Source of the DNA: Gemmataceae bacterium
GTDB taxonomy: Bacteria; Planctomycetota; Planctomycetia; Gemmatales; Gemmataceae
NCBI GenBank assembly: GCA_046350215.1
Contig: JAXMAU010000035.1
Location: 935 to 64,934, forward strand
Reading direction: 5' to 3'
DNA: 64,000 nt
In this document: piece by piece, positions 1,765 through 64,000 of the stretch
How positions within the stretch are numbered: position 1 is the first letter of the stretch
Layout: every line of letters starts with the position of its first letter
The notes under the pieces: generated by a model
Told to the model about the DNA's origin: nothing
Database searches by the model: none
Seen by the model: only the letters and a program-made list of their open reading frames with translations
Program-made: the position numbers and the translations under genes

Positions 1765-1889
1765 GCTGCTAACCCTTGCCAGGCCACGGAGGAGGGGCGT
1801 GCCGATTCATTCGACGGAAGCGAGTCGAACCGTCCGAGAGCAAGTATAGCTTTCACTTTTCCGCGCCGTGGCGAGGGAAGCGGAAAAGT

Positions 1890-1910
1890 CGGGGTGATCG
1901 GCTCACCCCG
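1890..1910 (-). terminator. hairpin downstream of the qor-like fragment
   Basis: CGGGGTGA-TCGGC-TCACCCCG. On the minus strand it is followed by ACTTTTCC. A mismatched second copy lies near 3030-3050. Confidence 0.4.
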
Positions 1911-1949
1911 CAGGTTGGAAGGCGTTCTTTCTGCTGACACAGTCGGCAT

Positions 1950-7786: not shown

Positions 7787-7820
7787 CCATCCCTTCATCC
7801 GATTCGCCGCCAGCGGAGTT

Positions 7821-7845
7821 GTCTACCGGCGAGGCGACGGTAGAC
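7821..7845 (+). terminator. hairpin after the DUF1573 gene
   Basis: GTCTACCG-GCGAGGCGA-CGGTAGAC. No clear T-tract follows. Confidence 0.3.
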
Positions 7846-7924
7846 TGTAGATGCCGGAATTGGCGGTCCTGTTCGTGCCTTTGCGTCCCTGGTGTTCGGT
7901 CGCCATCGGCCCCGAGACGATCCC

Positions 7925-41300: not shown

Positions 41301-42359
41301 GTTCCGGACGGTCAGTTTGAGATCGGCCTGGCCGGTCAGCCGGCCGCTTTGCACCGGCAGCTTCCACGCCGCCGGCAGGTCGCTCACCGCCAGGTCGTCG
41401 GCGCGGACCTTGAACCCGAACCGCGACACCGGGCCGGTGAAGTCGAGTTCGCCGTCCACCGCCAGCGCTCCGCCGGCGGCGCGCCCCTTCACTCCCTTGA
41501 GCAGCACGCGCGCGTCGTCGATGGTGAGCTTGCCCGACGCTTTCTCGGCGCGCAGGTCGATGGCGGCGACGTGAACGCGGGTGTCGCGCGGCTGCATCTC
41601 GATGCGATAGTGGACATCCGACTCGCCACCGCCGACGTGGGCCGTGAGATGCACGGGGGTACGCCCCTCGGCCTGCACTTCCTTCCACACCGCCGGGTCG
41701 ACGAACGGCAGGCGGTTCAGCTTTTCCTGCGTCACGTCGGCGTCAGTGGCGTCCATCGTCAGGTCGATGCCGCCCCTGTCCCTCTTCATCCGCCCGCCGA
41801 CCGACCAGTCGCCCCAGTACGGGTCGACGATCGATCCGGTGAGGGTGACGCCGTCGTCGGACGATTCGATCGTGCCGTCCTTGCCGTGCAAAACGACCGG
41901 CGCGCGGCCTTCCTGGCGCAGCGTGACCTCGACGCCGCGGAGGTCGATGCGTGGAAGGGTGGTCTTGCCGGTGCCGCCGCCGGGGACCGTGGTCAGCAGT
42001 TTGCCGGACCGATCGAACCGGAGCGTCACCTTCACGCCTGACAGGGTCAGCTGTTTCGGCAACCCGCCGGAGAGGGCGCCGAGGGCCGACAGGTCGGTTT
42101 CCACGCGGTCAATGCTCACCAGCGGCGTCGACGGATCGCCGGCATCGGGGACGCGCAGGCCGCCGAAGGTGCTGCCGCCGGTGAGGCCGACGGACGCCTC
42201 TTCCACCTCCACCGGCAAGTCGAGCCGGTCGCGCAGCGCCCGAGCAACCCGCTGCGCAGTGCCCGCGGACGAGAGGACCCAGCGCGCGGCGATCAGCGCC
42301 ACGCCGACGAACACCAGCAGCACCCCGACAGCCCAGCCCGTTCGTCGCAGCCGCGTCAT
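38376..42359 (-). CDS. AsmA/TamB-like giant envelope protein
   Basis: 1327 aa from ATG 42359 (MTRLRRTGWAVGVLLVFVGVALIAARWVL, N-terminal anchor). A long repetitive beta-rich body follows, then a C-terminal ..LHVGGTIRNPVVTV.. block typical of AsmA/TamB ends. The upstream 166 codons of the ORF cross repeat elements. Confidence 0.6.
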   Translation of the reverse strand: MTRLRRTGWAVGVLLVFVGVALIAARWVLSSAGTAQRVARALRDRLDLPVEVEEASVGLTGGSTFGGLRVPDAGDPSTPLVSIDRVETDLSALGALSGGLPKQLTLSGVKVTLRFDRSGKLLTTVPGGGTGKTTLPRIDLRGVEVTLRQEGRAPVVLHGKDGTIESSDDGVTLTGSIVDPYWGDWSVGGRMKRDRGGIDLTMDATDADVTQEKLNRLPFVDPAVWKEVQAEGRTPVHLTAHVGGGESDVHYRIEMQPRDTRVHVAAIDLRAEKASGKLTIDDARVLLKGVKGRAAGGALAVDGELDFTGPVSRFGFKVRADDLAVSDLPAAWKLPVQSGRLTGQADLKLTVRNGTLETHGEGKGRITGVEFAGGTGTIDLRLTGDGRRFRFQSAAPASTEELIPVVYRADDAPRQGWLDVPAGLAARTASVLADGVGRFGAGTHRVLQTLAAIDRPPPPGTPGEYLEMNLSFTDVQLEQLLRRFDITPPVPISGRLSFRLQVAIPVNTPRNLRAYRLNGSVDVPEARIADLRMEAVKARLDYRDGVATLTDLSGRFPQADPAKPGSFAGKARLGVMPPGDLDFALQVNDLSLAMLDALLLPAEARGLAGIASGTVSGKAPFAALRDPARWRADLDLRSPEATVLGLRARNAAFAARLEKGELTVDKVNGTVEGSPVRGTATVRLAAPRRVDARVVADSFDLAGLRRLPEAFRPPIELAGVARIEATAKGPLDGTALDLSGTLRSAQMTVARVRLTSAFVRLTMDRAALRLDDIQATAYAGTITGAVRAPTRETEPGRFNLTLKGVDASEVLRAVAGDVPVRVEGRLSGTVKGTITPAAPGKPRDVSADVDVTAPRLVVQRIPADRLSGTIRYRRGETVYDLQAEALGGKVRLEGRLPAAGRREGASGTLRLRDARVSRLLTALGWRAGQVPLRGVLSLDLPFRVVDGRPVGDARFVVRGLRWERTQLTGSIRGGLSLTTAGVQLRNLEGQLAGGTVRIAAGYRYRGNSYFAVTAYGIEASQLLAGVPGLEDVVDGPLNIDLRGTLNGGWTGGGTVTLTRGRVAGVETVDWRIPVAFRFPSGLSGGEVTIAGSTAQLAGGRAILRLAALWSGGSGARVDGQLQVSRAQLSRLVAAGDVGSYARGRVNATVDFAGSNVRSMNDLSGTIRATLEDTQTMQMPVFAALGPLLNLGGGSAFQNGDLRARLANGVVRVERLALRSASLALYATGTVTLQGRLDLDVTAYSGNNASCPAALLAIARFVPAVGPIPVALLARITAVLANQVVRLHVGGTIRNPVVTVQPVQLLAEDAVRFFLLGVIGAPLVPSAG

Positions 42360-42570
42360 GGCCAGCCTCCAGGTCGGCGGTCCCGCCGGGGGACCACGTT
42401 CACTCTTTCCCGTGGAGCGGACCGGGGCAAGCGCCCCACGTCGGGAAACCTCTCGCCCCGCCCGCCGGCGGGTGTGCCCGTCGTCACAAACACAACCACC
42501 CGGTTCGTTCAGCACACGGTATGCCTGACAGGACGGGACCGGAAAAAGACGCCGGGCGGCAAGATCGGTG

Positions 42571-42685
42571 CTGGTGCCATGCCCAGCCGCTCTGGGCTGG
42601 GCATGTGGAGCGAGGACGCGGCCAGTATGGGGGCCGGTCGGCGAAACGCCGCATGCCCACGCGAGCGTGGGCATGGCACCGAAGC
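42571..42685 (-). repeat. composite double-palindrome element, copy 2
   Basis: CATGCCCAGCC..GGCTGGGCATG (42578-42605) and GCATGCCCACGCGAGCGTGGGCATGGC (42651-42677). The reverse complement aligns with 28721-28838. Confidence 0.8.
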
Positions 42686-42698
42686 CGTTTCCGGCTGA

Positions 42699-42812
42699 CT
42701 TCTGGGTGCCATGGCCATGCTTCGTGGCCATGTGGTGCGAGTCATCTCTATTCGACGGGGCCGGTCGGAGAAACGCCGCATGCCCACGCGAGCGTGGGCA
42801 TGGCACCGAAGC
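42699..42812 (-). repeat. composite double-palindrome element, copy 3 (tandem with copy 2)
   Basis: ATGGCCATGCTTCGTGGCCAT (42711-42731) and ATGCCCACGCGAGCGTGGGCAT (42780-42801). A 54-bp block GGCCGGTCGG(C/A)GAAACGCCGCATGCCCACGCGAGCGTGGGCATGGCACCGAAGC is shared with copy 2. Confidence 0.8.
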
Positions 42813-42846
42813 ACCGAAGGTATCCACCCTGGCTGGATTAAAGACG

Positions 42847-42881
42847 CCGGGCGGCAAGGTCGTGAAGACCTTGCCGCCCGG
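42847..42881 (-). terminator. terminator hairpin of the metalloprotease gene
   Basis: Perfect 15-bp stem CCGGGCGGCAAGGTC / GACCTTGCCGCCCGG, loop GTGAA. On the minus strand it is followed by CGTCTTTAA. A lone left arm recurs at 42546-42567. Confidence 0.6.
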
Positions 42882-42908
42882 AAGCGTTCCGTCACCGAAG
42901 CGATTGGC

Positions 42909-45632
42909 TCACGGCTCGCTGGTCTGCAGCGAGGCGTTGAGCGTCTTGGCGATCCGCTCGCGACTCTCCTCCAGGTGAGCGCGGCTGGTGTCGTCGATCG
43001 TCACGTTGCCGTCGCCGACCAGCCGGTCGATCCGCTTGCCGACCTCGCGCAGATGCAGCCGGGCCAGGCTGCGGGCATCGGCCGGAGCGTCGCCGCCCCG
43101 GAGCACCAGCTGCGCCAGCGTCCGCAGGTGCTCGCGCTGGAGATTGCGCGTCACCACCGACAATTCCGCCTGCCGCTTGCCGTTGGCCCCCGGCCGCAGC
43201 GGATCGGCCCACACCGCGTCGGTGATCCCGCGAAACACCTCGGCGACCTGTAACGGCTGGTTTTTGGCGTCCTTGTCGGCCTTGAGCGCGTTGTTCTGCA
43301 CTCGCGCCAGCGTCGACCCGTCAAGCGCGTGCTGCAGCACCACCTGCTGGATCTCCAGGATTCGCTCGTGGATCGGGTAATCGACCTCGGAGAACAGGTT
43401 GCGCTCGGCCCCCCAGTGGACCCAGCGGTCCGACGCCAGCCGGCGGAGCAGCTTCGGCGAGTAGCGGAACGGCCGGTCGGTGAGGATGTGCTCCTGCAAA
43501 AACTTGAGCGCCGCCCGCTGCTTGTCGGGGTCGACGACGATGAACGGGTCGCGGGCGTTCGGGTCGCCGTCGTGGTCGCGGTGCATCGCCACCCCGCCGA
43601 CGAACTTGGCGATCAGGAACGCGCCGTTGCCGTACTCGCGGAGCAACAGGCCGAACGCCTGCCGCACCCGCTGATACCCCTCACCCTTGCTCGCCCCCTT
43701 GTCGGCCAGCTTGGCGAGCAGTTCCTCGGCAAGCAGGATGCGATCCTGGGCGAACTTCATCGGGTCGGCGCCCAGGTCCCAGGTGTTCACGAACGGGTCG
43801 CTGGTGGCGTACAGGTCCTCGTCGGTGGCGTAGTCGTGCCCCGGCAGCGCCGCCTTGCTGGCGATCTTCTTCAGCTCCTCGTACTCGCTCTCGGTAGTGC
43901 CGCTGAGCGGCCGATAGGCGTAATCGATTACCCAGTAGTCATATGGCCCGAGGGTGGTGGTGAAATAGTCGCCCTGTTTCACGCCCTTGGGTGCCAGGTT
44001 GATCGGCGCATAGTCCATCACGCTGCCGACCAGGCCCTTCGTGCGCGTGATGGCGGTGTCGTGCAGCTGCTCGTTCTTGAGCATGGTGCTCGATTTGAAG
44101 TTGTGGCGCAGGCCGAGGGTGTGGCCGACCTCGTGCATGGTCACTTCCTTGATTGCCTGGCCGATCAGTTCCTCATTGAGCACGCTGCCGGCGGCCGGCG
44201 GCGGAGCGGCCCCGTCGTCGCGCAGGGCGACCGCCAGGGCAAGCAGGTTCAGCTCGCGCTTCAGGCATGGACCGCACTCACACAACCCGCTGGCGACGGC
44301 GCGGAAGCGCGCCTTGGCAAACAGGTCGAGCTTGCCCGCCGGCCGGGTGTCCCAGCCGCCGACGTCGTCGCCGCCCATCTCCAGCGCCGACAGGCCTAGC
44401 CCCTTCTGCTGGGCGCGGATCGGGCTGATGTCCTCGGCGATGGCGGCGCCGGCCCCGCCGTACAGGCTGGCCGACTGGCGGTAATAGCGCACCATCGAGG
44501 CGTCGAAGACGATGTCGGCGTCAAACAGCTCGCCGGTGAGCGGGTTGGCCCGCGACGGCCCCATCGCGTAGCCGCGGTCGGTGGTGATCCAGCGGAACGT
44601 GTTGTAGTTGGAGTCTTCCGGGTCGAACTCCTCGTTCTCCTGCTGGCGTACCTCGATGGCGTCGCGGAAGCCGACCTTGGCGAATGCCTTGTTCCACTCG
44701 AGAATGCCGTCGCGGACGTAGCCGCGGTACTCATCGGGGACCGACTTCTCGATCCAGAAGACGATCTTCTTCTTCGGCGGCGCCAGCTTGCCGCCCTCCT
44801 TCCACACCGACCCGTCGGCCCGCTCCAGCCGCCAGCGGTTGACGTAGCGCAGGAACGGGGTGTCGCGGGTGTCGGTGGTGTAGTCCTTGACCACGCTGAT
44901 GAAGTGGCCGACGCGGTCGTCGGCGAGGCGCGGCTGGTAGCCGGCGTCGGGCAGCTGGCACAGGCCGTAGTGAATGACCACGGTGGCGCCGCGGCTGTCG
45001 ATCACCGCGTCGCCCTGTCCACCGCCGGCGTAGGTGGCGGCCACCTGCAGCTCGATGTTGCGCGGGAACGCCTTCACCTTGTGCCAGGTGCTGCGGTTGG
45101 GGTCGAACATGCCGCGCCGCAGCTGGGCGAAGTCAGTCATGAAGATGTCGTTCAGGCTGATCAGCACGCCCTGGCGGATCGGGTGGATCGAGTGGATCCG
45201 CAGCGCCATCAGCACGCTGTCGACGTAGCTGGTCTCGACGGCGCGGGCGACCGGGGTACTCGGACGGGCGCGGAAGCGGACGTTGCGGCGGACCAGGAAC
45301 ACCCGGTCGCCGACGCGCTGGAACACCAGCACCCACTGCTCACCGAAGTTGCGTGTGTGTCCGCCCTCGCCCATGCCGCGGGCGACGGCGATCGGGCACA
45401 GGAACGGCTGATCAAACTGGTGCGGCCGCAGCTCGGCGAACAGTGTCTCGTCCTTCTGATACAGCTTGAACAGCCCGTCGTACTCCTTCGCCCCTTTCAC
45501 CAGGGTGTCGAAGTCGGGGAATTTGGGCGGCGGGGCGTTGGGGACGACGTTGCCGGTCGAGCGGCCGGAGTGCCCGACCGACAGCAGGGCCAGGCCGCCG
45601 ACCAGGAGCAGGTGGAGCCAGTACCGTCGCAT
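42909..45632 (-). CDS. secreted zinc-dependent metalloprotease (met-zincin, DUF4953/DUF5117-type)
   Basis: 907 aa from ATG 45632. Signal peptide MRRYWLHLLLVGGLALLSVG and catalytic HEVGHTLGLRHNF. Confidence 0.85.
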   Translation of the reverse strand: MRRYWLHLLLVGGLALLSVGHSGRSTGNVVPNAPPPKFPDFDTLVKGAKEYDGLFKLYQKDETLFAELRPHQFDQPFLCPIAVARGMGEGGHTRNFGEQWVLVFQRVGDRVFLVRRNVRFRARPSTPVARAVETSYVDSVLMALRIHSIHPIRQGVLISLNDIFMTDFAQLRRGMFDPNRSTWHKVKAFPRNIELQVAATYAGGGQGDAVIDSRGATVVIHYGLCQLPDAGYQPRLADDRVGHFISVVKDYTTDTRDTPFLRYVNRWRLERADGSVWKEGGKLAPPKKKIVFWIEKSVPDEYRGYVRDGILEWNKAFAKVGFRDAIEVRQQENEEFDPEDSNYNTFRWITTDRGYAMGPSRANPLTGELFDADIVFDASMVRYYRQSASLYGGAGAAIAEDISPIRAQQKGLGLSALEMGGDDVGGWDTRPAGKLDLFAKARFRAVASGLCECGPCLKRELNLLALAVALRDDGAAPPPAAGSVLNEELIGQAIKEVTMHEVGHTLGLRHNFKSSTMLKNEQLHDTAITRTKGLVGSVMDYAPINLAPKGVKQGDYFTTTLGPYDYWVIDYAYRPLSGTTESEYEELKKIASKAALPGHDYATDEDLYATSDPFVNTWDLGADPMKFAQDRILLAEELLAKLADKGASKGEGYQRVRQAFGLLLREYGNGAFLIAKFVGGVAMHRDHDGDPNARDPFIVVDPDKQRAALKFLQEHILTDRPFRYSPKLLRRLASDRWVHWGAERNLFSEVDYPIHERILEIQQVVLQHALDGSTLARVQNNALKADKDAKNQPLQVAEVFRGITDAVWADPLRPGANGKRQAELSVVTRNLQREHLRTLAQLVLRGGDAPADARSLARLHLREVGKRIDRLVGDGNVTIDDTSRAHLEESRERIAKTLNASLQTSEP

Positions 45633-45872
45633 GAAGCAGTCCTCGGGTTGATGGAACGCACGCCGGCGGGCCGGTGGGCAGAGGCACCGCGGACGAGGTC
45701 GTACCGGACGATGGATGTTCCTCCACATTAACGGCCGTCCACCGCCGCAACAAGGGTTCTGGGGAAGCCGGGGAAGCTCTGCCGGTCAGGCAAGGTGTCA
45801 CGATCGGTGCGATTGTACCGGCCGGCGGTATAGTGAGGGGGAGCGCCAGCACGGCACCGGGGACGCCAGGTC

Positions 45873-46922
45873 ATGACGAAGCCGCCATTCGAGGAACAGT
45901 TGCTCGGCCAGACGATCGCCGGGAAGTACCGCCTGACGGCGATCCAGGGGGCGGGGTTCTACAGCGTGGTGTTCGTCGCCGAACAGCATTTCTGCGGCCG
46001 GTTGGTGCGGCCGGTGGCGGTGAAGGTGTCGCGGCAGACCGGGCTGACCGAGGAGACGGCGCCGCACCTGTTCGGCGACGCCATCATCCTGGCGCGACTG
46101 CTGGCCGGCAGCCACCACGACGGCCGGCAGCACCTGGTCCAGATCCACGACATGGGGTTGCTGCCCGAGCACGAGGGCCGCGCCTTCCTGGTGATGGAGT
46201 ACGTCGACGGCCGGCCGCTGCTGTCGCACATGCAGGCGGCGGGGCGGTTCACCGTCGCCACCGGGTTGCGGCTGCTCAAGCAGGTGTGCCTGGCGATGGC
46301 GCTGGTGCATGCGCAGGGTGCGATTCACCGCGACCTGATCCCGGAGAACATTCTGGTCGATCGCCGCGGACGGGTGCGGGTGGTCGACTTCGGGCTGGCC
46401 GCCTACGCCGATCCGCGCGCCGGCTTCGTCCCCGGCGCGATGGGCACCTTCTGTTACATGGCGCCGGAGACGGTGCTGGGCACATCGGTGCCAGCGTCAG
46501 ACGTGTACAGCATCGGGCTGGTGATGTACCAGCTGTTCACCGGCGGCGGACCGCACCTGACGGCGCCGTGGGCGACCGACGAGAAGGAGGACCGCAGCCG
46601 CGAGAACTACCGGATCAAGACCGGGCTGCGCTTCGCCCCGCCGTCGGAGTTCCAGAACGAGATCCGCAATGACTACCGCTGGCTCGACGGCCTGCTGCTG
46701 CGCTGTCTCGACCCCGATCCCGCTCGTCGATTCCCCGACGCCGGCGCGGCTGCTGCGCGAGCAATCTCCGCCTGTGAGGCCGGCGAACCGCTGCCACCAA
46801 TCGAGTATGGCGATACTCGCAACCAAACTCCGCTGCCGCATCCGCCAGCCGTCGACGAGGCTGGCGAGGCGGTGTTTCGCGAGGTCCGCAAGCTGCTCAC
46901 CGGCGGGCGTATGCCGCGGTGA
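45873..46922 (+). CDS. serine/threonine protein kinase
   Basis: Intact 349-aa ORF with VAVK, HRDLIPENILV, DFGLA and APE motifs. Confidence 0.9.
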   Translation: MTKPPFEEQLLGQTIAGKYRLTAIQGAGFYSVVFVAEQHFCGRLVRPVAVKVSRQTGLTEETAPHLFGDAIILARLLAGSHHDGRQHLVQIHDMGLLPEHEGRAFLVMEYVDGRPLLSHMQAAGRFTVATGLRLLKQVCLAMALVHAQGAIHRDLIPENILVDRRGRVRVVDFGLAAYADPRAGFVPGAMGTFCYMAPETVLGTSVPASDVYSIGLVMYQLFTGGGPHLTAPWATDEKEDRSRENYRIKTGLRFAPPSEFQNEIRNDYRWLDGLLLRCLDPDPARRFPDAGAAAARAISACEAGEPLPPIEYGDTRNQTPLPHPPAVDEAGEAVFREVRKLLTGGRMPR

Positions 46923-54134: not shown

Positions 54135-55139
54135 TCAGTCGAGCTTGAGGTCTGCCGGCTTCACGCCTTCTTCAGCGCCCGCGCCGAAGCTGAACGGCAG
54201 CGGCTTGTACTTGCTCGCCAACGAGGTCGACTTGGCCCTGGATGAGGATCTGCTCTTCATCCCCAGGCGCAGTACGAAGCGTTCACCAGCAGCCGCGCAG
54301 CCCTCGCTCGAAGGTCCCGTAAGGCAGCACGTAATCGACGTGAACACCCGTGCCGGCTTGCCGCCCGCGGGAGTGTAACTCTTCACCCAGGCGATCAGCA
54401 TGTCGGCGTCGTTCTTCTTCCGCTACGGCGGATCGGTGATTCGGCTTCCGCCGCGACCACATAGCCGGAAACGCAGCGGCTTGCTGTCGCCCGGCAACGG
54501 CGAGGTGGACGGTGTAGACGTCGCTCGGCCCCCAGATGTCGCCGTCGCCCAGGTGCCGCGGACGATCAGGTGATCGCTCCGCCCAGGGCGATGATTCCTG
54601 CGTGCTCTCCGACCCGTGGGCGCCGCTGATGGCCTACCCGCGTCTCTCCGGCGCCTCGCTGCCGAACCCGCCCGCTTCGGCCAGTGCCAGTGTGCATACT
54701 TGCTCTTGCCGGGCAGGTTGAACGCATGCGTGGCGGTCCGCAGGCCGATCACCGGCTTGCCGGCCTCGACGTAGTCGACGATGTGCCTCATCTGGTCGTC
54801 GGGCAGGTTGCGAAAACGGAGAAAGAAGACCGCCAGATCGGCCGTCTTCAGCGCTTCCAGGCCGGGAATGTTGTCGGTCTGCGTCGGGTTGATCGTGCCG
54901 TCCTTGCGGTCGATCGGCAGCAGCACCGTACACTTGAAGCCGTGGTGCCGGGCGAGGATGCGCGCCAGCTGCGGGATCGCCTCCTCGGAGCGGTACTCCT
55001 CGTCGCCGGCGACGAGGACGATGTGCTTGCCGCGGCCGGGGCCGTCGCCGCCCTGGTAGACGACGCCGGGAGAATCGGCGCGGGCGGCGGAGACGGCGAG
55101 CAGGGCGCAGAGGAGGGCGGCGGTGCGGGGGAGGGACAT
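54135..55139 (-). pseudogene. ThuA-domain protein, C-terminal half frameshifted
   Basis: ATG 55139, signal peptide MSLPRTAALLCALLAVSAARA. ..GKHIVLVAGDEEYRSEEAIPQLARIL..LAVFFLRFRNLPDDQMRHIVDYVEAGKPVIGLRTATHAF... The tail ..MLIAWVKSYTPAGGKPARVFTS.. is in another frame. Confidence 0.7.
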
Positions 55140-55229: not shown

Positions 55230-56294
55230 TTACTGGCCGCGCGAGTGGCTGCCGTGGCGGGAGCTGACGATCGGCGCGCCGTCGGGCAGCGGCCGGCCGG
55301 CGACGACGACGTTGTGATCGTGCAGGTAGTCGCGAAGGCGGCGGTAGAGCGGGAAGCTGTCGGCGTAGACCCACAGGGTGACGGCGGTCTGCTGCGGGTC
55401 GAGGCGGTCGATCACCTTGCGGAACGCCGACCCGTCGGCCAGGGCGCGGTCGGCCGGCTCGCCACGGTCGGCCTGGATTGGCTCGACCTCCCAGGTGGCC
55501 AGGCCGTAGCGAAACGCGCCGTCGATCGGTGCTGAACCGGGCGGGCCGTCGGTCAGTTCCTTCTGCCGTTCGATGGTGTAGCGCAGGCGGAACGCGCCGA
55601 CCGGCTGGGTGGTGGCGGTCACCTGCCACTGCGTCTTCAGTCCCTCGGCCCGACTGCGCGACTCGCGGCGGATCTCGTCCAGCATGGTGCCGGTGTCAAT
55701 CAGCGCCACGCGGCCGTGACGGCACTCGAACATCACCTCCTCGGTCTGCACCGGGGCGCTGACCGGGGTGCGATAGCGCAGCTCCTTGCGCGCCGGCGGA
55801 AGCTTTTTCAGCTCCGCGATGTCGTCCATCAGCTTCTTACTACGGGTCCGCAGATTGGCGAGGGTGGCGGCGGAAGCGGTCAGCTGCGCGCGGCCGGCGG
55901 CGGTGCGGGTCGTCAGGCCGGCGCGGTCGTCGTGCATCTTCCGTCCGATGCCGCTCAGGGCGTCCAGGTCGCGGCGGAGCCGCTCGGCCAGGCCGCGCAC
56001 CTCGGCTGCTTGCCGCGCACGCTCGGCCGCACTGCCGGCCGTCTCCGCCAACTCGTCGCGTTGCCGCACCAACTGTTCCTGACGCGGGTCGGTCGGCTCG
56101 GGGAGAAGGCGGTTCGTCGGCGACGGCGGCGGGCGGCGGAGGCGGCGGCGGGACGATCGCCTTGTACGACCGGGCGCCCGACCCAGGTGACGAGGATCAG
56201 CCGCAGGATGATCCCGACCACGGTGGCGACGAGGTCGAGAAACGAGTCGAAGCTGAAGGCGATCTCGCGGTGCCGGACGGCGGCGGCGGGCCAT
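55230..56294 (-). pseudogene. single-TM, coiled-coil ExbD/TolR-like protein (N-terminal TM out of frame)
   Basis: ATG 56294. The TM segment REIAFSFDSFLDLVATVVGIILRLILVTWVG (with Asp) reads in the frame of ORF 55955-56809. The rest is in ORF 55230-56345: a coiled coil, then ..VMFECRHGRVALID.. and ..AVTLWVYADSFPLYRRLRDYLHDHNVVVAGRPL.., resembling the ExbD periplasmic fold pattern. Confidence 0.55.
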
Positions 56295-56351
56295 CGCGGT
56301 CGAGCCTCCCAGTCCAGGGAGGCCGAGTCTCCCCGTCTCCGCCACGCGGCG

Positions 56352-58504
56352 TCAGAACCCGCTGACGATGTGGCCGACGTCGTCGCCGGGCAGCAGCGAG
56401 GAGCCGTCTTGGGCACCGAAACCGTCTCGCGCCGGATACGCCAGGTGATACGTCCGTTCCGCGTCCGGGTGAACGAGGAGGATCGGCACGCCGACGTCGA
56501 GCCGTCGGGGCGGCTCGGTCGCCAGGTGTCGGCCATCAGGTCGCGCGGTCTGGTGAGCGGGTTGTACACCGGCGTCTGGTTTAGCAGCGACAGGGCGTAC
56601 ATCTTCCGCGTCGGGAACACGACGACACAGTCGGCCCGACACTCGGCGAAGATGGTCATGTCGCCCGGATTGGTGATCCGCGCCCGGGCGAAGCGGAATC
56701 TCGCGGCGTTCGAGGCCGCCCGGCGCGGAATCGGCCCCGGAATCCCGGCCGTCCGCCCGACCCCTCGCCAGTGTTCCCGGCCGCTTCGCCGGCTGTCCGC
56801 CAGACGCAAGCCGTGACGGCGGCGAGCTGCCCGTCCCTGAACCTGCCGTCCCGGTGTTCGGGAGCAGGGAGAGCACCCCGATGCCGCCGTCAGCCGTCTT
56901 CGGTCCCGCCGCCGTCGCCGAGGTCGCGGCGGACAGGTCGCAGCGGTGGCATTCGTCGCCCCGAGCAGGGGAACCGGCGCGTCGGGGTGCGGCGGGTGGA
57001 GCGGCGCCCGTTCGCACCACCGATGCCGGGTAGCGCCACGCCGTCCGCAGGTGCCCCGTAGGGCCGCGGCCGGCTCAGGCCGACCACCGGGCGCTGATCG
57101 GCTGCCGGTGCCCGCGTCGGCCGGCGGTTCCGGTGACGGCTGCGCGGTCGGTAGGCCGATGCCGGCGCCCAGGTGCCGGTGCCGGAGCCACCCGGCGAAC
57201 CCGATGGCGGCGGTAAGGTCATGCCGATCTGCGGGCCGTCAGACCCGCCAGTGCCCGCCGGACCCGCCAGGCCAGGGCCGCCAAGGTCCGGGCCAGCGTT
57301 GCCGCCGACGCCGGACCGCCGCCCGGTGCCCCGCCCTGGATCGGTCGAGTGCAAGCGGCCCGGCGGACGGTTTGCCGCTGCCGAGGCCTGGCCCGCGTTG
57401 CCGCCGAGCGCCCGGACCACTGCTCGGAGTCCACCCTGGATCGGTCCGAGGGCGAACGGGCCAGGCGACGGTTGGCCGCTGGGTTGGCCTCCGGTGGCGG
57501 GCGGCATCAGGCTGACTGGGCCGGACAGGGCGGTCTTTTTCGCCACCGGGGCCGGCGGTTCGGGCGACGGTTTGGCGACGGATGCGGTCCGCGTCTCCTC
57601 CGCCGGCGGGAAGTGCAGCTTCCAGTCGGCGTCGACCAACTCATAGCCGAAGTCGACACCCATCCCGCGGATGGCGGACTCGAGAGTTGATAACGGCGGA
57701 CGATGCCGTCGGGGCGGACGAGCAGCATCAGGTACGCCCGCGCTACGACACGCCCTGTTTCGCCAGCTCCTCCCGCTGCGCCGCCGCCCGCCGTTCGACC
57801 TCCTGCCGCACGATGGCCGGCATCTCGGCGTCAACCATCTGCCGGTCGGGGTGGAAGATCAGCCCGCTGGCAGCGCACTCGACGTAGAGCGGCCGCCGAC
57901 TGTCGCCCTGCTTGCCGCGGTACGGGACGATGGAATAGGTCTCGGCGTCGCGCTTGCGGGCCTCGCGCAGCTGGGCGAGCGCCTTCTCCAGCTGTTCCAG
58001 CTCGGCGGTCAGGCGCGCCTTGCCGGACTCGGCCTCGGCGGCCTTGCCGGCCAGCCCGTCGGCTTCGCGTTTCGCGTCGGCGACGGCCTGTTCGTGTTGC
58101 TGCAGCCGCGCCTTCTCGGCCGTCACCTGCGTCCGCAGCTTCTGAACGACATCCTCCTCGCGGCGGAGGCGCGCGGCGGCGTCGGCCAGCCGTGCCTCGA
58201 CGCGCTGCATCTCGTCGTCGAGCTGCTGTTTCTCGGCGGTCACCCTGGCGCGGAGGTCGTCGCGCCGTTTCTCCCAGGCGGCGACGGCGGTCTTGCGTTT
58301 GGCGTCGGCTTCCCGCCTGCGCGCGGCAGTCCGGCCGGCGTACTCGCGCTGCTGCTGGCGGGCCTTCTCCTGGGCCTTGGCGACCGCGGCGAGCTTCGCC
58401 TTGCGGTCCATCACCAGCAGCACCAGGATCAGCGCGCCCATCGCACACAGCAGGACGGCCAGGAACGGGAAGGTATTGACCTGCAGCTGGTTTCGACGTC
58501 TCAT
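56352..58504 (-). pseudogene. TM - coiled-coil - ExbD-like module - Pro/Gly-rich linker - second ExbD-like module (one or two genes, several frameshifts)
   Basis: ATG 58504 overlaps the MotA/ExbB stop (ATGA). MRRRNQLQVNTFPFLAVLLCAMGALILVLLVM, ~170 aa of coiled coil, ..PLYVECAASGLIFHP.., frame break near 57745, ..YLMLLVRPDGIVRRYQL.. / ..GVDFGYELVDADWKLHFP.., a Pro/Gly-rich stretch, ..MTIFAECRADCVVVFP.., ..VPILLVHPDAERTYHLAY.., and a stop at 56352. Confidence 0.5.
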
Positions 58505-59823
58505 GCCGCCTGCCCCCGCGCCAGCCGCGGGCCGGAGGTGCCGCCGCTCCGGGCGGTAAGCAGGTGGACGGCGGCGGTCAGGCTGTGGACCGCCTCCTCG
58601 AACGCATTGGCGTCCGCCAGCGCCGCCAGGTTGGACTGCAACGTCGCCTGCAGGTTCGCGACCGTGCCGGTATCTTTCTGCAATTGCGCCAGCAGCTCCG
58701 CCTGCTGGCCGATCCGGTCGACCACCTTCTGCAGCGCCGCCTGCTGATCGATGCCGGTCTGCTGGATGGCGGCGCCCATGTCGGCGATCTGCGTCATCAG
58801 CCGCGTACTCTGTTCCACTGCCCGTTCTTCCAGCGCCGCCAGCCGCTGCGAGTAGGCGTCGATCGTCTGGTCGAGCGCCTGGCCGAGCGCCGTCGTCAGC
58901 TTCTCCTGAATCCGGTCGAGCAGGTCGACGGCGCGGGCCTCCGGCGCCTTGAGCGTGGCCGACCACACCTCCGCCTGCTTCACCAGGATCCCCTCGACGG
59001 CGGCGGCCAGCTCCTGCGCCCCGTGCTGGATCACGGCGGTCGCCCCGCCGCCGTTGCCGGCGTCACGAGCGAACCGATGGCCGAGCCATTGCTCGGTCAG
59101 CCGGTCGACCAGCTCCAGCAGCGCCTGTTCCTGCCGCTCCACCAGGAAGGTGACGAACATCAGCAGCATCGTCAGGCCGAGCGCCAGGGCGGTCGAGTCG
59201 AACGCCTCGGACAGCCCGTCAGTGACGCTCGACAGCGACTCCTCCAGCACCTCCGGCGTGACGCCCGAGATGGCGCCGGTGATGCCGATGACGGTGCCGA
59301 GGAAGCCGAGAATCGGGATCGCCCAGGTGATGAACCGCACCAGCGCGAAACTGTTCTCCTGGGCGATGGCGTCATTATCCGCCAGCGTCCGCAACTGATC
59401 GTCCAGGTCGGCGGCACTCTTCCGCTGGCAGACGAAGTCGAGCACTGCCCGTAGTCGCCGGCCGAGGTAGGTGTCCTGCACACGCGCCGGCTGCCGGTCG
59501 AGCGATGCCGCCAACTCGCTGGCCCGTTCCGCCGGCACCGGCTTGCCGTCCCAGCGCGGCAGGACCTCGTTGCCGCAGGCGCCGTGTTCGCCGCGTAGCT
59601 GGACGAACTTCAGGAACAGCGCGCCCAGCCCGCAGCAGAAGAACAGCACCTCCACCCACTGCACCGGGAACTCGACGTAGCGAAAGGCGACCGAGTTGCG
59701 CAGCGGCCCGTAGTGAAACAGGGCGAGGACTCCGCCGGCGAGGGCGGCGCCGAGCAGGAGCACGGTCAGGGTGGACCCGTGGCGCCGGGACGCGCCTGCG
59801 GGGGACGGGGAGAAGCTGCTCAT
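58501..59823 (-). CDS. MotA/TolQ/ExbB-family proton channel with ~180-aa C-terminal coiled-coil extension
   Basis: Intact 440-aa ORF. TM segments, the family signature ..FITWAIPILGFLGTVIGITGAI..SEAFDSTALALGLTMLLMF.., then a heptad-like helical tail. Confidence 0.8.
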   Translation of the reverse strand: MSSFSPSPAGASRRHGSTLTVLLLGAALAGGVLALFHYGPLRNSVAFRYVEFPVQWVEVLFFCCGLGALFLKFVQLRGEHGACGNEVLPRWDGKPVPAERASELAASLDRQPARVQDTYLGRRLRAVLDFVCQRKSAADLDDQLRTLADNDAIAQENSFALVRFITWAIPILGFLGTVIGITGAISGVTPEVLEESLSSVTDGLSEAFDSTALALGLTMLLMFVTFLVERQEQALLELVDRLTEQWLGHRFARDAGNGGGATAVIQHGAQELAAAVEGILVKQAEVWSATLKAPEARAVDLLDRIQEKLTTALGQALDQTIDAYSQRLAALEERAVEQSTRLMTQIADMGAAIQQTGIDQQAALQKVVDRIGQQAELLAQLQKDTGTVANLQATLQSNLAALADANAFEEAVHSLTAAVHLLTARSGGTSGPRLARGQAA

Positions 59824-60117: not shown

Positions 60118-63100
60118 ATGGTGCGGTGGTGGACGCTGGCGCTCGCGCTGCTGATGGCGGTGGGCGGAACGGCGCGTGGGCAGGCGTTCAAGCTGGCCCC
60201 GGCGGTGGCGATCGAGGCGGAGGAGTTCGCCATCGAGTCGGGCTGGACGGTGGTGAGGAACGGCGCCGGCAACTACATGGTCGATGCTATCGGCTTCAAC
60301 CACCTCTCCGGCGAACGGCTGCTCAGTTTGCCCGCTAGCGCCAACGCCGGCCGCGCCCGCCGCGAGGTCCGTGTCCCGGTCGCCGGCAAGTACCGCCTGT
60401 GGGTCCGCTACGAGTATCCGCCGTTCTGCGAGACGCGCTTCCGCGTCGTCATCGAGCAGAACGGCCGCAAGGTACTCGATCACGTCATGGGCACCCGTGA
60501 CAGTCTTCGTCACGCCTTTGGCGATCCGGTCGCGAAGGCGCAGCACGACCCGGCGTGGGGACCGGAAGGGCTGGTCGAGGAGGGCGTCACCGTGCCACAC
60601 CTGCAGGCCGGGCCGGCGACACTGGCGCTCGTTGGCGTGACGCAGCCACAGACGCCCGGCGTGGCGGCCAACCGCAACATCGACCTCGTCTATCTCACCG
60701 CCGACACCACCGACGCCTGGCGCAGCACTACGGCCGCACGACCAGCCTCTACCCGATCCTCGACGCCTTTCGCGACAGTCGCGCGGCCCGCTGGGAGGTG
60801 CGTTTTACCAACCGCTCGGATCGACCAGCGGACTACCGCGTCCATCACGTCTATAACCGCATCCCCTGGGGCACCAGCGATCCGGCCGAGGCGCGCGGCG
60901 TCAAGCCGAGCGAGCAAAGCGGCTGGCTCGGGCTGACCGGGCAGGACACGGCCCACTTCGGGATGACCGAGTTCCGCAGCATCGGCGCGTTCGACGTCGA
61001 GTTGCGTCCCGTCGGCGACGAGCGGCCCCTGCGCTCGCTGTCCGGGAGTGGCATCGTCCGCGTCTACCTGCCGCCGTATCGATCCAGCGAGCTGCCGACC
61101 ACGCCGGAGGCGGCGATCGACCACATCCTCAGCGAGCTGAAGCGCTTCCCGGCGCCGGGCAAGAAACCGACATTGCCCCTCTGCTACGGCGGATGGCTGC
61201 CGCTCGGTCAGGACAACGCCTATGGCCGCAAGTACGCCGAACTGTACGCCGCCCTCGGCTTTCGCTCGCTGCACCCGGCGCACAGCGGGCCGGCGGTGCG
61301 CAAGAACCTCGATGCCGTCGGCATCGCCCCGTCGAAGTCGTGGATGGTGATGGGCTATCGCAATCCGCCGACGCGGGCGAACATCGACCGCGCCGCCCGC
61401 GATGTCGACCGTACCGGCATGCGGCCGCACCTGCGCTTCTTCGACTACGGCGACGAGATCGCCTTCGCCGAGTGGCTGACCATGCAGGCGGAGGACGACC
61501 TGGCCCGCGCCAGAGCGGCCGGCAAGAAGGTTTCGAGTAGGGAGTTACTCGCTGCGAAGTGGGTGGAGTGGCTCAAAAGCAACCGGCCGAGGCAGCGGCT
61601 GGTCGATTACTGGCTGCCGTCGTGGGGGCCGTTCAATCTGGGGGCGGTGCGGCCCGACAGCAGCGCCGAGGCGGCGCGGCTCAACCCGCGGCTGTACGTC
61701 GACTCGCTGCAGTTCTACGAGGAGTCGGCCATCCGCTTCGCTGCCGACGGCGCGAAGGAGGTGCGCGCCACCCTCGGCGATGACGTGCTGTGCGGCGCCA
61801 ATTACTCGTGCCACCCGTTCTACTACCCGCACAGCACCATGTACATCAAGTGGTTTCGCGATGGCGCCGCCGATCTTGGCCGGCACAGCGAGTACTTCTG
61901 GCAGGTGGGCCAGCTCGGCCCGATGGTGAACGGCTACATCGCCGAACACATCCGCGCCGGCATGCGCGACAACCCCCGCGCCGTGCTGCGGCAGTACACC
62001 ATGCCGCACGCGCCAGGCAACACCGACGAGAGCTTCCTGCGCAGCGCGTTCAGCCACCTGGCACACGGAGCGACGATGCTCGACTTCTTCGGCATCGGGC
62101 TGAATGAGACGTTCACCGAAAACCACATCGACCACCGCGCCCGCGGCCGCTTCCGCGCCCTCCGCGACGTGACGCACGCCGTCGGGTTCGTCGAGGATCT
62201 GCTGCCGAAGGCCCGCGCGGTGCCGTCGCCGGTCGCCCTGCTGGTGAGCGCGAGCACCGAGCGCTGGGACCTGGCCGCCATCGCCACCGACCGCGCCGGC
62301 CATGCGTCGTTCGGCCCCGACTTCCGCAAGACGCGGTTGCACTTCCACCTCGATCGGCTCGGCATCTGGACGGCCCTGACCTACCTCGGCTGCAGCCCCG
62401 ACCTGGTGACGGAAGAGGACGTGATCGCCGGCAAGCTGCAAGGCTGCAAGCTGCTCGTCCTCGTTGGCGATCACTGGCCGCGGGAGCTGCCGGCGGCGGT
62501 CGAGAAGTGGGTCCGCGCCGGCGGCGTTGCGCTGGCCACCGCCGGCGCCGGGGCACGCGACCCCTACGGCGAGGAAACCGACGGATGGCGACGACTCGCC
62601 GGGCTGAAGGCGGTGCAGACGCAGGCGCGCGACACGTTCATCCGGCCGCGCCAGGAGTTGCCGTTCCTGACCCCGCTCGACACCGTGACCGGCAAGACGC
62701 CGAAAGGCGAGGCGTTCACGTTTCCGGCGCTGGCGACGCGCGAGCGATTGACCGTCGCCGAGGCCGAGACGCTGGCGACGGCGAAGAAGGATGGTGCGGC
62801 GGTGCTGTCGGCGCGGAAGGTGGGCCGCGGGACGGTGCTCCACCTGGCGGCGCATCCGGGCATCGCCTACCTGTACACCGCCGTCCAGCCGCCGGCGGTG
62901 CCGGACCGCGGGCCGGGGGTGCATCGCGTGCCGGCGAAGTACGACGCCGGAGTGACGACGCTGTTCCACGCGCTGCTCGACCAGGCAGGTATCGTCCGCC
63001 CGATTACCGCCTCGCACCCGCTGCTCGACGCTCGCCTGCTGGAAGCGCCGGGCGGCTACCTGCTGCCGGTGGCGAACTATGCGCCCGAGGTCGATCAGTC

Positions 63101-63254
63101 GGTGAAACTAAGTGTCCGCGTGGCGAAGCCGGTGGCGCGAGTGGTCAGCGCCTACCACGGCGAGCTGAAGCACACCACGGCGGAGGGCCAGGTGACGTTC
63201 ACGCTGCCATCGCTGGGGTACGGCGACGTCGTGCGGATGGAGTTGAGGCGGTAA
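60118..63254 (+). pseudogene. large secreted glycoside-hydrolase-like protein (possible GH42-type middle domain), single frameshift
   Basis: Signal peptide MVRWWTLALALLMAVGGTARG. Reads to ..DLVYLTADTTDAWR, then shifts near 60723 into ORF 60555-63254 (..QHYGRTTSLYPILDAF..). ..CKLLVLVGDHWPRELPAAVEKWVRAGGVALATAG.. resembles the GH42 trimerisation domain. The functional call is weak. Confidence 0.55.
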
Positions 63255-63310: not shown

Positions 63311-64000
63311 TTACCCGCGCATCGCCAGCGCCTTGAAACGCCGCGCACAGTCGGTGATCGCCACCTCGGTCGGCAGCCGCTCGATGCTGGAGGCGCCGAA
63401 AAAGCCGACCACGCCGGTGGTGTGCGCCAGGATGTACGCAGCGTCCTCCGGCTCGGCGATTGGGCCGCCGTGACACAACACCAGCACCTGCGGGTTGACT
63501 TCCTTCGCCGCGTCCGCCATCGCCTGCACCCGCCGCGCCGATTCCTCCAGCGTCCGCGCCGTCTGGGCGCCGATTGTGCCCTTGGTCGTCAGCCCCATGT
63601 GCGGGATCAGCACGTCGGCGCCGGCCTTCGCCATCGCCACCGCCTCGGCCTCGTTGTGGACATACGGGCAGGTGAGCAGGTCCAGCTCGCGGGCGAGGGC
63701 GATCATCGCGACTTCCTTGTCGTAGCCCATGCCGGTTTCCTCTAGCCCCTGCCGGAAGGTGCCGTCGATCAGGCCGACCGTCGGAAAGTTCTGAACGCCC
63801 GAAAAGCCCGCCTGCTTCACCTCCTCCAGAAACCGGCGCATGACGCGGAACGGGTCGGTGCCGCACACCCCGGCGAGGACCGGCGTGTCCTGCACGATCG
63901 GCAGCACCTCGCGGGCCATCTCCATCACGATGGCGTTGGCGTCGCCGTAGGGCATCAGGCCGGCGAGCGAGCCGCGGCCGGCCATGCGGTAGCGGCCGGA
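63311..64000 (-). CDS. phosphoenolpyruvate-hydrolase-like TIM-barrel protein (N-terminus beyond the window)
   Basis: ..[68 protein letters not shown]... The ORF is open to the window edge. Confidence 0.7.

Follow-up and report, generated by a model that had tools for sequence, protein, structure and literature searches.

A syntenic, unannotated operon of a TolQ/ExbB-like channel and two membrane-anchored partner proteins in Planctomycetota

Background

In Escherichia coli the channel subunits TolQ and ExbB of the TolQ-TolR(-TolA) and ExbB-ExbD(-TonB) systems have total chain lengths of 230 and 244 amino acids, respectively. ExbD and TolR share the element order b-b-b-a-b-a-b. Members of the Planctomycetes-Verrucomicrobia-Chlamydiae (PVC) group also contain TolQ-like motors in which the pore-helix partners form heterologous pairs and the output domains are not of the TonB type (PMC12204202). 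The channel protein ZorA of the Zorya anti-phage system is distinguished by an oddity, a long cytoplasmic C-terminal tail (PMC12505986).

The A-B-C locus

The window, i.e., the whole stretch of 64,000 nucleotides that was analyzed, contains three genes, here named A, B and C, all on the minus strand. Their features are:

58501..59823, minus strand: gene A, TolQ/ExbB-like channel; intact 440-aa open reading frame with PF01618 match
59125..59454, minus strand: MotA_ExbB domain of A, residues 124-233 (PF01618 match)
58504..59124, minus strand: C-terminal tail of A, residues 234-440 (conservation, composition, periodicity)
56352..58504, minus strand: gene B, ~700 aa once its frames are corrected (alignment to the intact orthologue of locus L003, allowing frameshifts; intact orthologues have 500-1060 aa)
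58409..58471, minus strand: membrane helix of B, TFPFLAVLLCAMGALILVLLV (family alignment)
57938..58402, minus strand: coiled coil of B, ~residues 35-190 (heptad periodicity; weak matches to coiled-coil families)
57500..57937, minus strand: domain d1 of B, YSIVPYRGKQGDSRRPLYVEC...LMLLVRPDGI...VDFGYELVDADW, broken by frameshifts at 57745 and 57686
56700..57499, minus strand: linker of B, Gly/Pro/Ser/Ala-rich, low-complexity, 3' of d1 (GC 73-78%)
56355..56699, minus strand: domain d2 of B, MTIFAECRADCVVVFP...LLVHPDAERTYHLAYP... (hhalign to d1)
55230..56294, minus strand: gene C, ~352 aa after frame correction (frameshift-aware alignment; family alignment)
56180..56265, minus strand: membrane helix of C, EIAFSFDSFLDLVATVVGIILRLILVTWV (family alignment)
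55803..56090, minus strand: coiled coil of C, ~residues 70-165 (AF2 helices 71-139 and 146-165; periodicity)
55233..55760, minus strand: domain d3 of C, EEVMFECRHGRVALID ... TLWVYADSFPLYRRLRDYLH...VVAGRPLP, intact in the window

Gene A had been predicted to encode an intact MotA/TolQ/ExbB-family channel, which it does. The product matches PF01618 (MotA_ExbB) at residues 124-233 with an E-value of 5e-10 and 39.6 bits (cut-off 22.9), is 100% identical to an NCBI protein from a metagenome-assembled genome (MAG) annotated as MotA/TolQ/ExbB family, and has TolQ and ExbB as its best sequence matches in the PDB. Hydropathy predicts four hydrophobic segments (residues 18-36, 56-74, 161-186 and 210-228). 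The MotA_ExbB domain harbors the hairpin WAIPILGFLGTVIGITGAI ... AFDSTALAL, and Thr177 and Thr211, both invariant, align with the pore threonines in GTV and ATA of TolQ.

Beyond the last membrane helix A continues for ~205 residues. This tail, whose length is conserved among the best 120 of 1,784 homologues, is almost free of Pro, is rich in Ala, Leu and Gln, ends in the conserved motif NLAAL...FEEAVHSLTAAVHLLTAR and matches no Pfam family above threshold. From the topology of TolQ and ExbB it would be cytoplasmic. The original prediction described the tail as an extra, heptad-like one; the extension is there, but its heptad character was confirmed only in part, since in a crude test for 3.5-residue periodicity the tail as a whole scored z 0.2 (not significant) and the signal was strong only locally, at about residues 343-384. 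The findings support A as a true member of the MotA/TolQ/ExbB channel family that has an atypically long C-terminal extension.

The reading frames 3' of A resolve into two genes, B and C, the start of B overlapping the stop of A in an ATGA at 58504-58501, as had been noted from the sequence. Neither B nor C matches a Pfam, NCBIfam or PADLOC family; they are unannotated membrane-anchored partners of A. Gene B carries FPFLAVLLCAMGALILVL and encodes, in this order, a membrane helix, a coiled coil, d1, the Gly/Pro-rich linker and d2. Its orthologues have total lengths of 433-1062 aa, the linker varying widely among them; a Pro/Gly-rich spacer behind the first module was thus correctly foreseen. 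Invariant in the membrane helix are T11, F12, P13, F14, A16, V17, L18, L19, M22 and G23. An invariant Ala stands at the position of Asp25 of ExbD, in a register relative to ExbD that is not statistically significant, and the His of the SHLS motif of TonB and TolA is missing. The coiled coil, predicted to be periplasmic, belongs to a region past the membrane helix with significant heptad periodicity (z 3.4).

Gene C, of which the NCBI call covers only a 279-aa fragment (U0736_18550), carries FDSFLDLVATVVGIIL and encodes an Arg-rich N-terminus, a membrane helix (FSFDSFLDVV), a coiled coil and d3. Five Arg precede the helix, in which Asp16, Asp20 and Asn24 are invariant in the family alignment; distant members, among 2,350 clusters formed at 50% identity, still have the motif FG(S)DSFLD. 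This supports a single membrane helix of the ExbD/TolR type in C, predicted N-in, with an invariant Asp near the cytoplasmic end. The helix of B has the same motif with Ala replacing Asp. Taken alone, the membrane-helix alignments with ExbD do not reach statistical significance. One helix with and one without the Asp pattern had been noted, and C, with two invariant Asp, and B, with Ala at that site, agree with this. Past the membrane helix of C the heptad periodicity is significant (z 4.2); the AF2 block-mean pLDDT of the coiled coil is >90 at residues 71-130 and 67-89 beyond, and the C profile searched against the PDB matched only coiled-coil proteins.

Domains d1, d2 and d3

Three copies of one module had been described, and all three are present, d1 and d2 in B and d3 in C. 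Comparison of their sequence profiles by hhalign shows d1 and d2 to be homologues (98.5% probability, E 3e-15). Domain d3 is probably related; it aligns with d1 (58.6%, E 9.5e-5) only when its insertion of ~78 residues, delimited from the structure model, is removed. In the AF2 model of d3 the per-10-residue mean pLDDT is mostly >90, with one lower stretch within the insertion, and the element order is b-b-a-[insertion]-b-a-b-b.

The module had also been said to follow the strand pattern of the ExbD periplasmic domain. For this speaks that d1, modeled by AF2 from an orthologous domain (pLDDT 85.9), has the element order b-b-b-a-b-a-b, the same as ExbD and TolR. A small ExbD/TolR profile aligned with d1 in register, but weakly (hhalign ~21%), and Pfam ExbD matched neither B nor C even at E-values up to 10. 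None of the Foldseek matches of d1 and d3 was significant. TolR (5by4) was found at rank 15 for d1 (E 0.19; TM 0.44/0.48, among the highest listed) with the highest probability in the match list, 0.63; among the top 50 matches of d3 ExbD and TolR were absent. The top Foldseek matches of d1 were ribosomal protein S11 and RNase-H-like folds, so that an ExbD-like fold is not proven for d1; we regard it as only weakly supported. Of the profile searches that had been suggested, MotA_ExbB thus matched A, whereas ExbD/TolR, TonB_C and OmpA of Pfam and NCBIfam matched neither B nor C, lenient thresholds included.

Synteny and distribution

Wherever a related locus has all of A, B and C, they are colinear; this holds for 63 loci, and the operon is also present in loci L001-L003 and in the distant locus L089. 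Loci with only some of the genes are for the most part short or cut off at an end; in one case (L029) A and B are clearly absent although 7 kb of upstream sequence are present. The three genes occur in most of the related genomes retrieved, and the taxonomically labeled genome records containing them are from Planctomycetota, mostly Gemmataceae. Their flanks are housekeeping-type genes that differ by lineage, with no conserved flanking family (the commonest is found in at most 19 of 80 genome loci). Translational coupling or tight spacing links A, B and C, and they are co-inherited across Gemmataceae and further. Among the large open reading frames at 38-64 kb of the window there is no TonB_C, OmpA or TonB-dependent receptor, in agreement with the original prediction. 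These results support a strongly syntenic, unannotated operon other than an ordinary ExbBD-TonB system.

Proposed function

We consider it fairly probable that the three genes form a self-contained operon and encode an inner-membrane motor of the TolQR/ExbBD type that is driven by the proton motive force; the broken frames of B and C are most likely assembly errors. A would form a putative pentameric channel, into whose pore C would insert its Asp-bearing helix as the axle of proton relay. This axle would be a C homodimer or a heterodimer of C and B, and proton flow could rotate or ratchet A about it. The PVC motors with heterologous pairs of pore-helix partners offer a precedent (PMC12204202). 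If B enters the pore, Asp would be present on only one axle subunit, for which we know of no characterised precedent. B may act as a long-range transducer, composed of a ~155-residue coiled coil predicted to be periplasmic, d1 with its putative ExbD-like fold, a Gly/Pro linker that would be disordered and that spans a few hundred residues in the longest orthologues, and the terminal d2. With this reach B would be well fitted to the enlarged periplasm of planctomycetes and could contact a putative peptidoglycan or outer-membrane partner. The tail of A might provide a cytoplasmic module for interaction or output, which TolQ and ExbB lack.

B and C could instead be scaffold proteins that are related to ExbD and TolR neither in evolution nor in structure and that resemble PilN/PilO, GspM or FtsB/FtsL. 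A would then do no more than anchor them or serve as their proton-gated channel, e.g., in envelope spacing or budding division, and would generate no rotary force. A membrane helix followed by a coiled coil and a small a/b domain is a generic architecture of envelope scaffolds; B and C have no family match, d1 and d3 no significant fold match, and the periplasmic parts of both proteins far exceed those of any ExbD or TolR. We nevertheless hold this to be unlikely. The two Asp near the cytoplasmic side of the C helix, invariant and kept even in distant family members, the pore threonines of A and the translational coupling of the genes are hallmarks of a working channel-axle pair, and all characterised PF01618 proteins known to us work with such a partner.

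Frameshifts in B and C

About 20 frameshifts lie within 57745-56109 (~1.6 kb), ~17 of them in B (57745-56403), mostly in the linker, and three in C (at 56273, 56179 and 56109). That so many frame-breaking indels, not obviously tied to homopolymers, fall into so short a stretch, and that NCBI annotates only the fragment of C and apparently no B, would fit a pseudogene cluster decaying in this strain, with genuine indels and non-functional B and C. We judge such decay quite improbable. Frame-corrected identity to the closest relative (L003) is 75-90% inside the patch vs. 76-83% outside, the conserved domains are without stops, and each frame segment keeps a high GC3. No frameshift falls in A, in 755 bp of B or in 870 bp of C. 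An unrelated ThuA-like gene nearby has equally dense patches and a GH42M-like gene one more frameshift. The same gene split is seen in several long-read MAG loci. The frameshifts in the window are thus most likely sequencing or assembly errors; of the two possibilities raised before, an inactive or a poorly sequenced locus, it is the second that the data favor.

Two further explanations are very unlikely. A Zorya-like anti-phage system, in which a MotA-like channel signals envelope perturbation via a long cytoplasmic tail to cytoplasmic effectors, would account for the tail of A, predicted to be cytoplasmic, and for a match of A to PADLOC ZorA2 (E 5.6e-7), but the match is limited to the shared MotA/ExbB hairpin (A 161-232 vs. 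profile 45-114 of 505), none of the ZorB, ZorC, ZorD and ZorE models matches B or C, the lineage-variable, housekeeping-type flanks contain no conserved effector genes, and occurrence in most related genomes found differs from that of patchy defense islands. An ordinary ExbB-ExbD-TonB energizer of nutrient uptake, divergent only in sequence, would likewise consist of a channel and two single-pass proteins, one with a Pro/Gly-rich spacer, and JGI auto-annotates A as ExbB/TolQ; against it stand the missing ExbD and TonB_C domains, the B helix without the SHLS His, a TonB-dependent receptor neither nearby nor conserved, the coiled coils and A tail foreign to canonical systems, and a separate canonical ExbD pair in one locus (L043).

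Comparison with known systems

With TolQ-TolR(-TolA) and ExbB-ExbD(-TonB) (PF01618 + PF02472; PDB 8odt, 9ddm, 6tyi) A shares the PF01618 hairpin and both pore threonines, C a helix predicted N-in with Asp near the cytoplasmic end, and the locus an operon of three genes, one of them for a long single-pass protein with a spacer. A differs by its ~205-residue extra tail and by four rather than three predicted hydrophobic segments. The partners are larger (350 aa and ~430-1060 aa vs. ~140 aa in ExbD/TolR), have periplasmic coiled coils and match none of PF02472, TonB_C and TolA_III; C has two invariant Asp, and in B the Asp site is occupied by Ala and the SHLS motif is missing.

Zorya (ZorA-ZorB) likewise includes a channel of the MotA/ExbB family whose C-terminal tail is long and helical; the tail lies in the cytoplasm in ZorA and presumably also in A, where it is much shorter. 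A-B-C lacks the peptidoglycan-binding ZorB as well as ZorC, ZorD and ZorE, and its distribution is conserved and core-genome-like rather than that of defense islands.

In the gliding/type IX secretion motors GldL-GldM and PorL-PorM, too, a single-pass partner extends a long periplasm-spanning structure, and the channel subunit has a cytoplasmic extension, as A is predicted to have. There is no sequence match to A-B-C; GldL is not known to be a PF01618 member, the GldM helix uses Arg, not Asp, and Planctomycetes, as far as we know, have no type IX secretion.

From the PVC vWA-transducer TolQ-like motors (PMC12204202) and Myxococcus AglRQS the operon differs in having no vWA domain and no TPR gene, in its outputs (coiled coils with d1, d2 and d3), in one partner without Asp and in the channel tail, which is probably cytoplasmic. 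Common to them are one channel gene with two different single-pass partners, outputs that are not of the TonB type, the occurrence in Planctomycetes and, as a proposal, direct transduction of force by the pore-helix proteins.

The channel protein A

The operon consists of three genes on the minus strand, which encode a TolQ/ExbB-like channel (A) and two single-pass membrane partners (B and C). They are listed below together with two unrelated neighboring genes.

Genes of the operon and its neighbors
59823..58501, minus strand: gene A, 440 aa, intact (open reading frame and PF01618 match)
58504..56352, minus strand: gene B (frameshift-aware alignment to L003, a locus of a close relative with intact B and C; about 17 frame changes between 57745 and 56403)
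56294..55230, minus strand: gene C (frameshift-aware alignment to L003; frame changes at 56273, 56179 and 56109)
54423-55139, minus strand: ThuA-like gene, downstream, unrelated (six frameshifts in 175 bp, 54674-54501)
60118-63254, plus strand: GH42M-like gene, upstream, unrelated (one frameshift at 60721)

In a Pfam scan residues 124-233 of A matched PF01618 (MotA_ExbB) with an E-value of 5e-10 and 39.6 bits, the curated cut-off being 22.9; the distant A orthologue of locus L089 matched with E 3.7e-12. A is 100% identical to a protein from a Gemmataceae MAG that is labelled "MotA/TolQ/ExbB proton channel family protein" at NCBI, it has more than 1,700 close homologues, and its stop codon overlaps the start codon of B (ATGA at 58504-58501). 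From hydropathy four hydrophobic segments were predicted (18-36, 56-74, 161-186 and 210-228), of which the last two, WAIPILGFLGTVIGITGAI and TDGLSEAFDSTALALGLTMLLMF, are the best-conserved part of the family. When PDB sequences were searched with a profile of 38 A sequences, the only relevant ones found were TolQ (E 0.026-0.13) and ExbB (E 0.2); MotA, ZorA and GldL were not matched. The last two membrane helices carry the GTV/TA motifs with the pore threonines: all 38 sequences have Thr177 and Thr211, which correspond in the alignment to the threonines of GTV and ATA in TolQ. Two residues before Thr211 (AFDxTA) at least 90% of the 38 sequences have an aspartate, Asp209 (window 59197-59199), where TolQ has Ile.

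Residues 234-440 of A form a tail with hardly any Pro and much Ala, Leu and Gln. The best 120 of 1,784 A homologues agree in its length, and a motif at its end is conserved. Since heptad periodicity is strong only locally and not globally, we speak of a helical tail rather than of a proven coiled coil. Judged by the known topology of the MotA/TolQ/ExbB family, the tail should be cytoplasmic.

The broken frames of B and C

Downstream of approximately position 57745, in a region of about 70% GC, a GC3 frame plot showed that the coding frame switches repeatedly, and the NCBI annotation of the contig contains of C only a 279-aa fragment (P0123). A dynamic programme that allows for frameshifts, run with the intact L003 proteins against the window, gave the two-gene solution. 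Within the operon the indels form a patch of some 1.6 kb; they spare A as well as the initial 755 bp of B and the final 870 bp of C.

The original prediction had considered the locus to be either inactive or poorly sequenced. After frame correction the identity to L003 is 75% (end of d1, the first small domain of B), 76% (d2, the second) and 90% (N-terminus of C) inside the patch, as compared with 83% (A), 82% (N-terminus of B) and 76% (rest of C) outside of it; no stops are left in the conserved domains, and GC3 stays high inside every frame segment. The DNA alignment to L003 revealed mixed gains and losses of 1-2 nt, with no obvious homopolymer context at the indels. There are several dense indel patches in the window, which are not specific to this locus, the ThuA-like and GH42M-like genes being also affected. 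B is likewise split over at least two frames in other MAG loci (L014, L020, L026, L032, L045, L054, L071, L074, L079, L080 and L086), two of which have a split A too. Most of these records bear MFD-series isolate names and are taken to be long-read assemblies; the gene with the very GC-rich low-complexity linker seems to pose problems time and again when genomes are assembled or polished. From the even identity, the lack of stops, the high GC3, the hits in unrelated genes and the split frames elsewhere, an error of sequencing or assembly is far more probable than gene decay. We therefore favor the second half of the earlier alternative, reject the pseudogene reading and handle the broken genes of this MAG as assembly errors.

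The partner proteins B and C

B has at least 563 homologues; among the matches listed all are called "hypothetical", have no Pfam match and are 433-1062 aa long. An invariant helix (TFPFLAVLLCAMG) precedes a region of heptad periodicity (z 3.4). Then follow d1, a linker rich in Gly, Pro and Ser that differs widely in length between orthologues, and d2. Upstream of a distant C member a Pro/Ser/Thr-rich protein is encoded (L091:77-985 and L090:3-638, both plus strand), which ends in a d2-like α/β domain (ITVHLD...AVQFVVSPGAHTLELQLADELTRHGVPV). The protein was detected neither by the d1 and d2 profiles nor by Pfam; it is probably a highly diverged B.

C has at least 1,158 close homologues. When 1.84 billion cluster representatives were scanned in full with HMMER, 2,350 clusters (50% identity) came out at E ≤1e-3 and 794 at ≤1e-30. 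An Arg-rich N-terminus is followed by the helix FSFDSFLDVVANVVG, in which D16, D20 and N24 are invariant. After a Pro-rich stretch come a coiled coil, with AF2 helices at 71-139 and 146-165 and a periodicity z of 4.2, and a third small domain, d3. The charge distribution suggests an N-in single membrane helix with the Asp near its cytoplasmic end (RRRR...FSFDSFLDVV). Among PDB sequences the C profile found coiled-coil proteins only. Distant members of the family retain FG(S)DSFLD and the end WVYPDSF...AGRPLP and have lost the "EC" motif and the membrane Arg; the contigs of three of them (P0480, P0488 and P0473) are too short for an informative gene context. The membrane Arg, Arg31 within the hydrophobic helix (helix at window 56180-56265), is invariant in Gemmataceae and replaced by Ile or Leu in distant members. 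Arg31 of C and Asp209 of A are a possible charge pair.

The modules d1, d2 and d3 and their possible likeness to ExbD/TolR

That B and C contain three copies of one module had been noticed by eye, and this observation stands: d1 and d2 aligned in hhalign with a probability of 98.5% (E 3e-15). Between full-length d3 and either of the other two modules only the hhhEC motif could be aligned. After an insertion of about 78 residues, located from the AF2 model, had been removed, d3 aligned with d1 at a probability of 58.6% (E 9.5e-5) and with d2 at 15%. With moderate confidence d3 can be regarded as a divergent, insertion-bearing copy. A Glu-Cys pair closes the first strand of each module (at about 57870 in d1, 56650 in d2 and 55730 in d3). 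It is invariant in d1 and d2 across 38 aligned members of the B family, that of L089 included; in d3 of Gemmataceae-type C the Glu is never replaced and the Cys rarely, and the pair is absent from most of the distant C sampled. The pair may form a disulfide or a metal site particular to one clade.

The partners had also been predicted to be ExbD-like, which holds for the membrane helix of C with its invariant Asp and does not extend to database families or to a significant fold match. Searches with the intact orthologues revealed no ExbD, TonB_C or OmpA domain in B or C. PF02472 was not matched at E up to 10 by B, C, their intact orthologues or distant members, NCBIfam gave no ExbD match for B or C, and Pfam, NCBIfam and PADLOC contained no family for either protein (raw window open reading frames, intact orthologues and distant members). 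A local ExbD HMM detected canonical ExbD in locus L043, not B or C.

The model of d1 (pLDDT 85.9, pTM 0.80) has the element order β-β-β-α-β-α-β, which we take to be also that of ExbD/TolR (PDB 2pfu, 5by4). RNase-H-like and S11 folds share this order. With trimmed d1 Foldseek found nothing in the PDB at E ≤1e-3; ribosomal protein S11 (E 0.023) and RNase-H-like folds headed the list, and TolR (5by4) was at rank 15 with E 0.19, a TM of 0.44/0.48 (among the highest listed) and a probability of 0.63, the highest in the list. The full C model gave no significant match and no ExbD/TolR within the top 50. In hhalign d1 aligned in the expected register over 75 columns (probability 21%, E 1.1e-3) with an ExbD/TolR profile of only six sequences, four from PDB alignments and two from L043, so that a deeper profile might do better; the alignments of d2 and d3 with this profile were not significant. 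FLDVV of C and FLAVL of B were placed opposite FIDVM of ExbD in alignments too short to be significant by themselves. The Asp position of the ExbD helix is kept in C and occupied by an invariant Ala in B. These results hint at a possible ExbD-like periplasmic fold of d1; the stronger argument for an ExbD/TolR-like role of the partners is the membrane helix.

Conservation of the operon

Contigs encoding A homologues have one layout: A (about 440 aa), a protein of 668-983 aa and a protein of about 340-355 aa, the last two without Pfam match. The contigs compared were L001 (Gemmataceae MAG), L002 (a 9.3-Mb JGI contig), L003-L007 (Logan; A 83% identical to that of the window) and one further JGI contig. 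Relatives of C, searched with two peptide patterns in 185,579 species-representative genomes, are encoded on 91 stretches. The 80 stretches kept are all from MAGs, nearly all of them labelled Gemmataceae, Gemmatales or Planctomycetota. A, B and C are colinear in 63 of 87 loci, the partial cases being mostly short or end-truncated, and the same architecture, with a short linker, is kept in the distant locus L089 (62% GC). The only clear exception is L029, where full-length C (6986-8062, plus strand) has no A or B in the 7 kb upstream; this could be due to a rearrangement, a misassembly or a split operon.

The genes flanking A-B-C vary by lineage. The most frequent flanking family, a convergent gene resembling phosphofructokinase (judged by the PFK gene that occupies this place in a related contig), is present at no more than 19 of the 80 genome loci. 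Among the large open reading frames between 38 and 64 kb of the window there is no TonB-dependent receptor, TonB_C or OmpA domain. The window also encodes, at 38376-46922 and 63311-63985, a 1,493-aa open reading frame (weakly YhdP-like), a Met-zincin (DUF4953/DUF5117), a Ser/Thr protein kinase and a PEP_hydrolase-like protein, none with an evident link to the operon. In L043 two canonical ExbD-like open reading frames (994-2070, plus strand; helices LTPLLDLV and ITPMLDMT) lie about 2 kb upstream of A, which shows that the A-B-C operon and ordinary ExbD paralogues occur side by side.

A literature search found no paper on the A-B-C family. By the PF01618 match of A, the lack of any Pfam, NCBIfam or PADLOC family for B and C and the 63 colinear loci with differing flanks, the prediction of a divergent, unannotated MotA/TolQ/ExbB-type motor operon is supported.

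Proposed mechanism

We propose that a pentamer of A would enclose C, or B plus C, inside its pore, and that proton flow via the Asp/Thr site would lead to relative rotation. The coiled coils, presumably periplasmic, and the tether of B would pass the movement to a distant envelope target, and the tail of A would engage a partner on the cytoplasmic side. It is conceivable, if rather doubtful, that A-B-C is a planctomycete-specific trans-envelope machine combining an asymmetric B/C axle and a long reach with cytoplasmic coupling via the A tail. In such a machine the TolQ-like pentamer would turn round C with its double-Asp proton relay and round a proton-blind B with Ala at the Asp site. A periplasmic coiled coil and a disordered tether of a few hundred residues could, as estimated from the residue count, carry the work over tens of nanometres; the Tol/Ton principle would in this way be adapted to Gemmataceae, with their much widened periplasm. 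In bacteria that lack the usual division machinery A-B-C could functionally replace Tol-Pal, be it in maintaining the envelope or in budding division.

Few families of ion-driven 5:2 motors, with a pentameric ring around a dimeric axle, are known (flagellar stators, Ton, Tol, gliding and Zorya), and every new family has shown another way to export proton-motive energy across the envelope. Unusual in A-B-C are that only one of two partners keeps the proton-relay Asp, the coiled coils, the long disordered tether and the presumed cytoplasmic tail of the channel. The operon bears on how the enlarged planctomycete envelope is energized and maintained and on whether a motor of this kind can run with Asp on only one subunit of its axle; B and C could be defined and named as families.

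Comparison with known systems

B shares with TonB and TolA the spacer; it differs from them by a helix without His or SHLS motif and by the lack of a TonB_C or TolA match. A canonical Ton system was therefore rejected, there being also no TonB-dependent receptor among the large open reading frames at 38-64 kb. Zorya systems combine a long-tailed ZorA with a peptidoglycan-binding ZorB and with effectors encoded alongside (ZorC/D or ZorE). A does match ZorA2 (E 5.6e-7), but only in the shared hairpin; ZorB-E were not matched and conserved flank genes are absent, by which Zorya was also rejected. MotAB stators, with the OmpA-like peptidoglycan-binding domain of MotB and the specific cytoplasmic torque interface of MotA, can be dismissed, since B and C have no OmpA domain and the PDB profile matches of A were TolQ and ExbB rather than MotA.

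A-B-C resembles the channel-plus-partner systems of the PF01618 family, in which C, syntenic with the channel in 63 loci and single-pass with invariant D16 and D20, would be the partner; TolQ (230 aa) and ExbB (244 aa) have no counterpart of residues 234-440 of A. For PVC bacteria a recent survey has described TolQ-like motors in which the pore-helix partners form heterologous pairs and the output domains are not those of TonB, and it stresses that further systems of this kind are still to be found (PMC12204202). A-B-C fits this group, from whose described members it differs by its partners and by the tail added to the channel.
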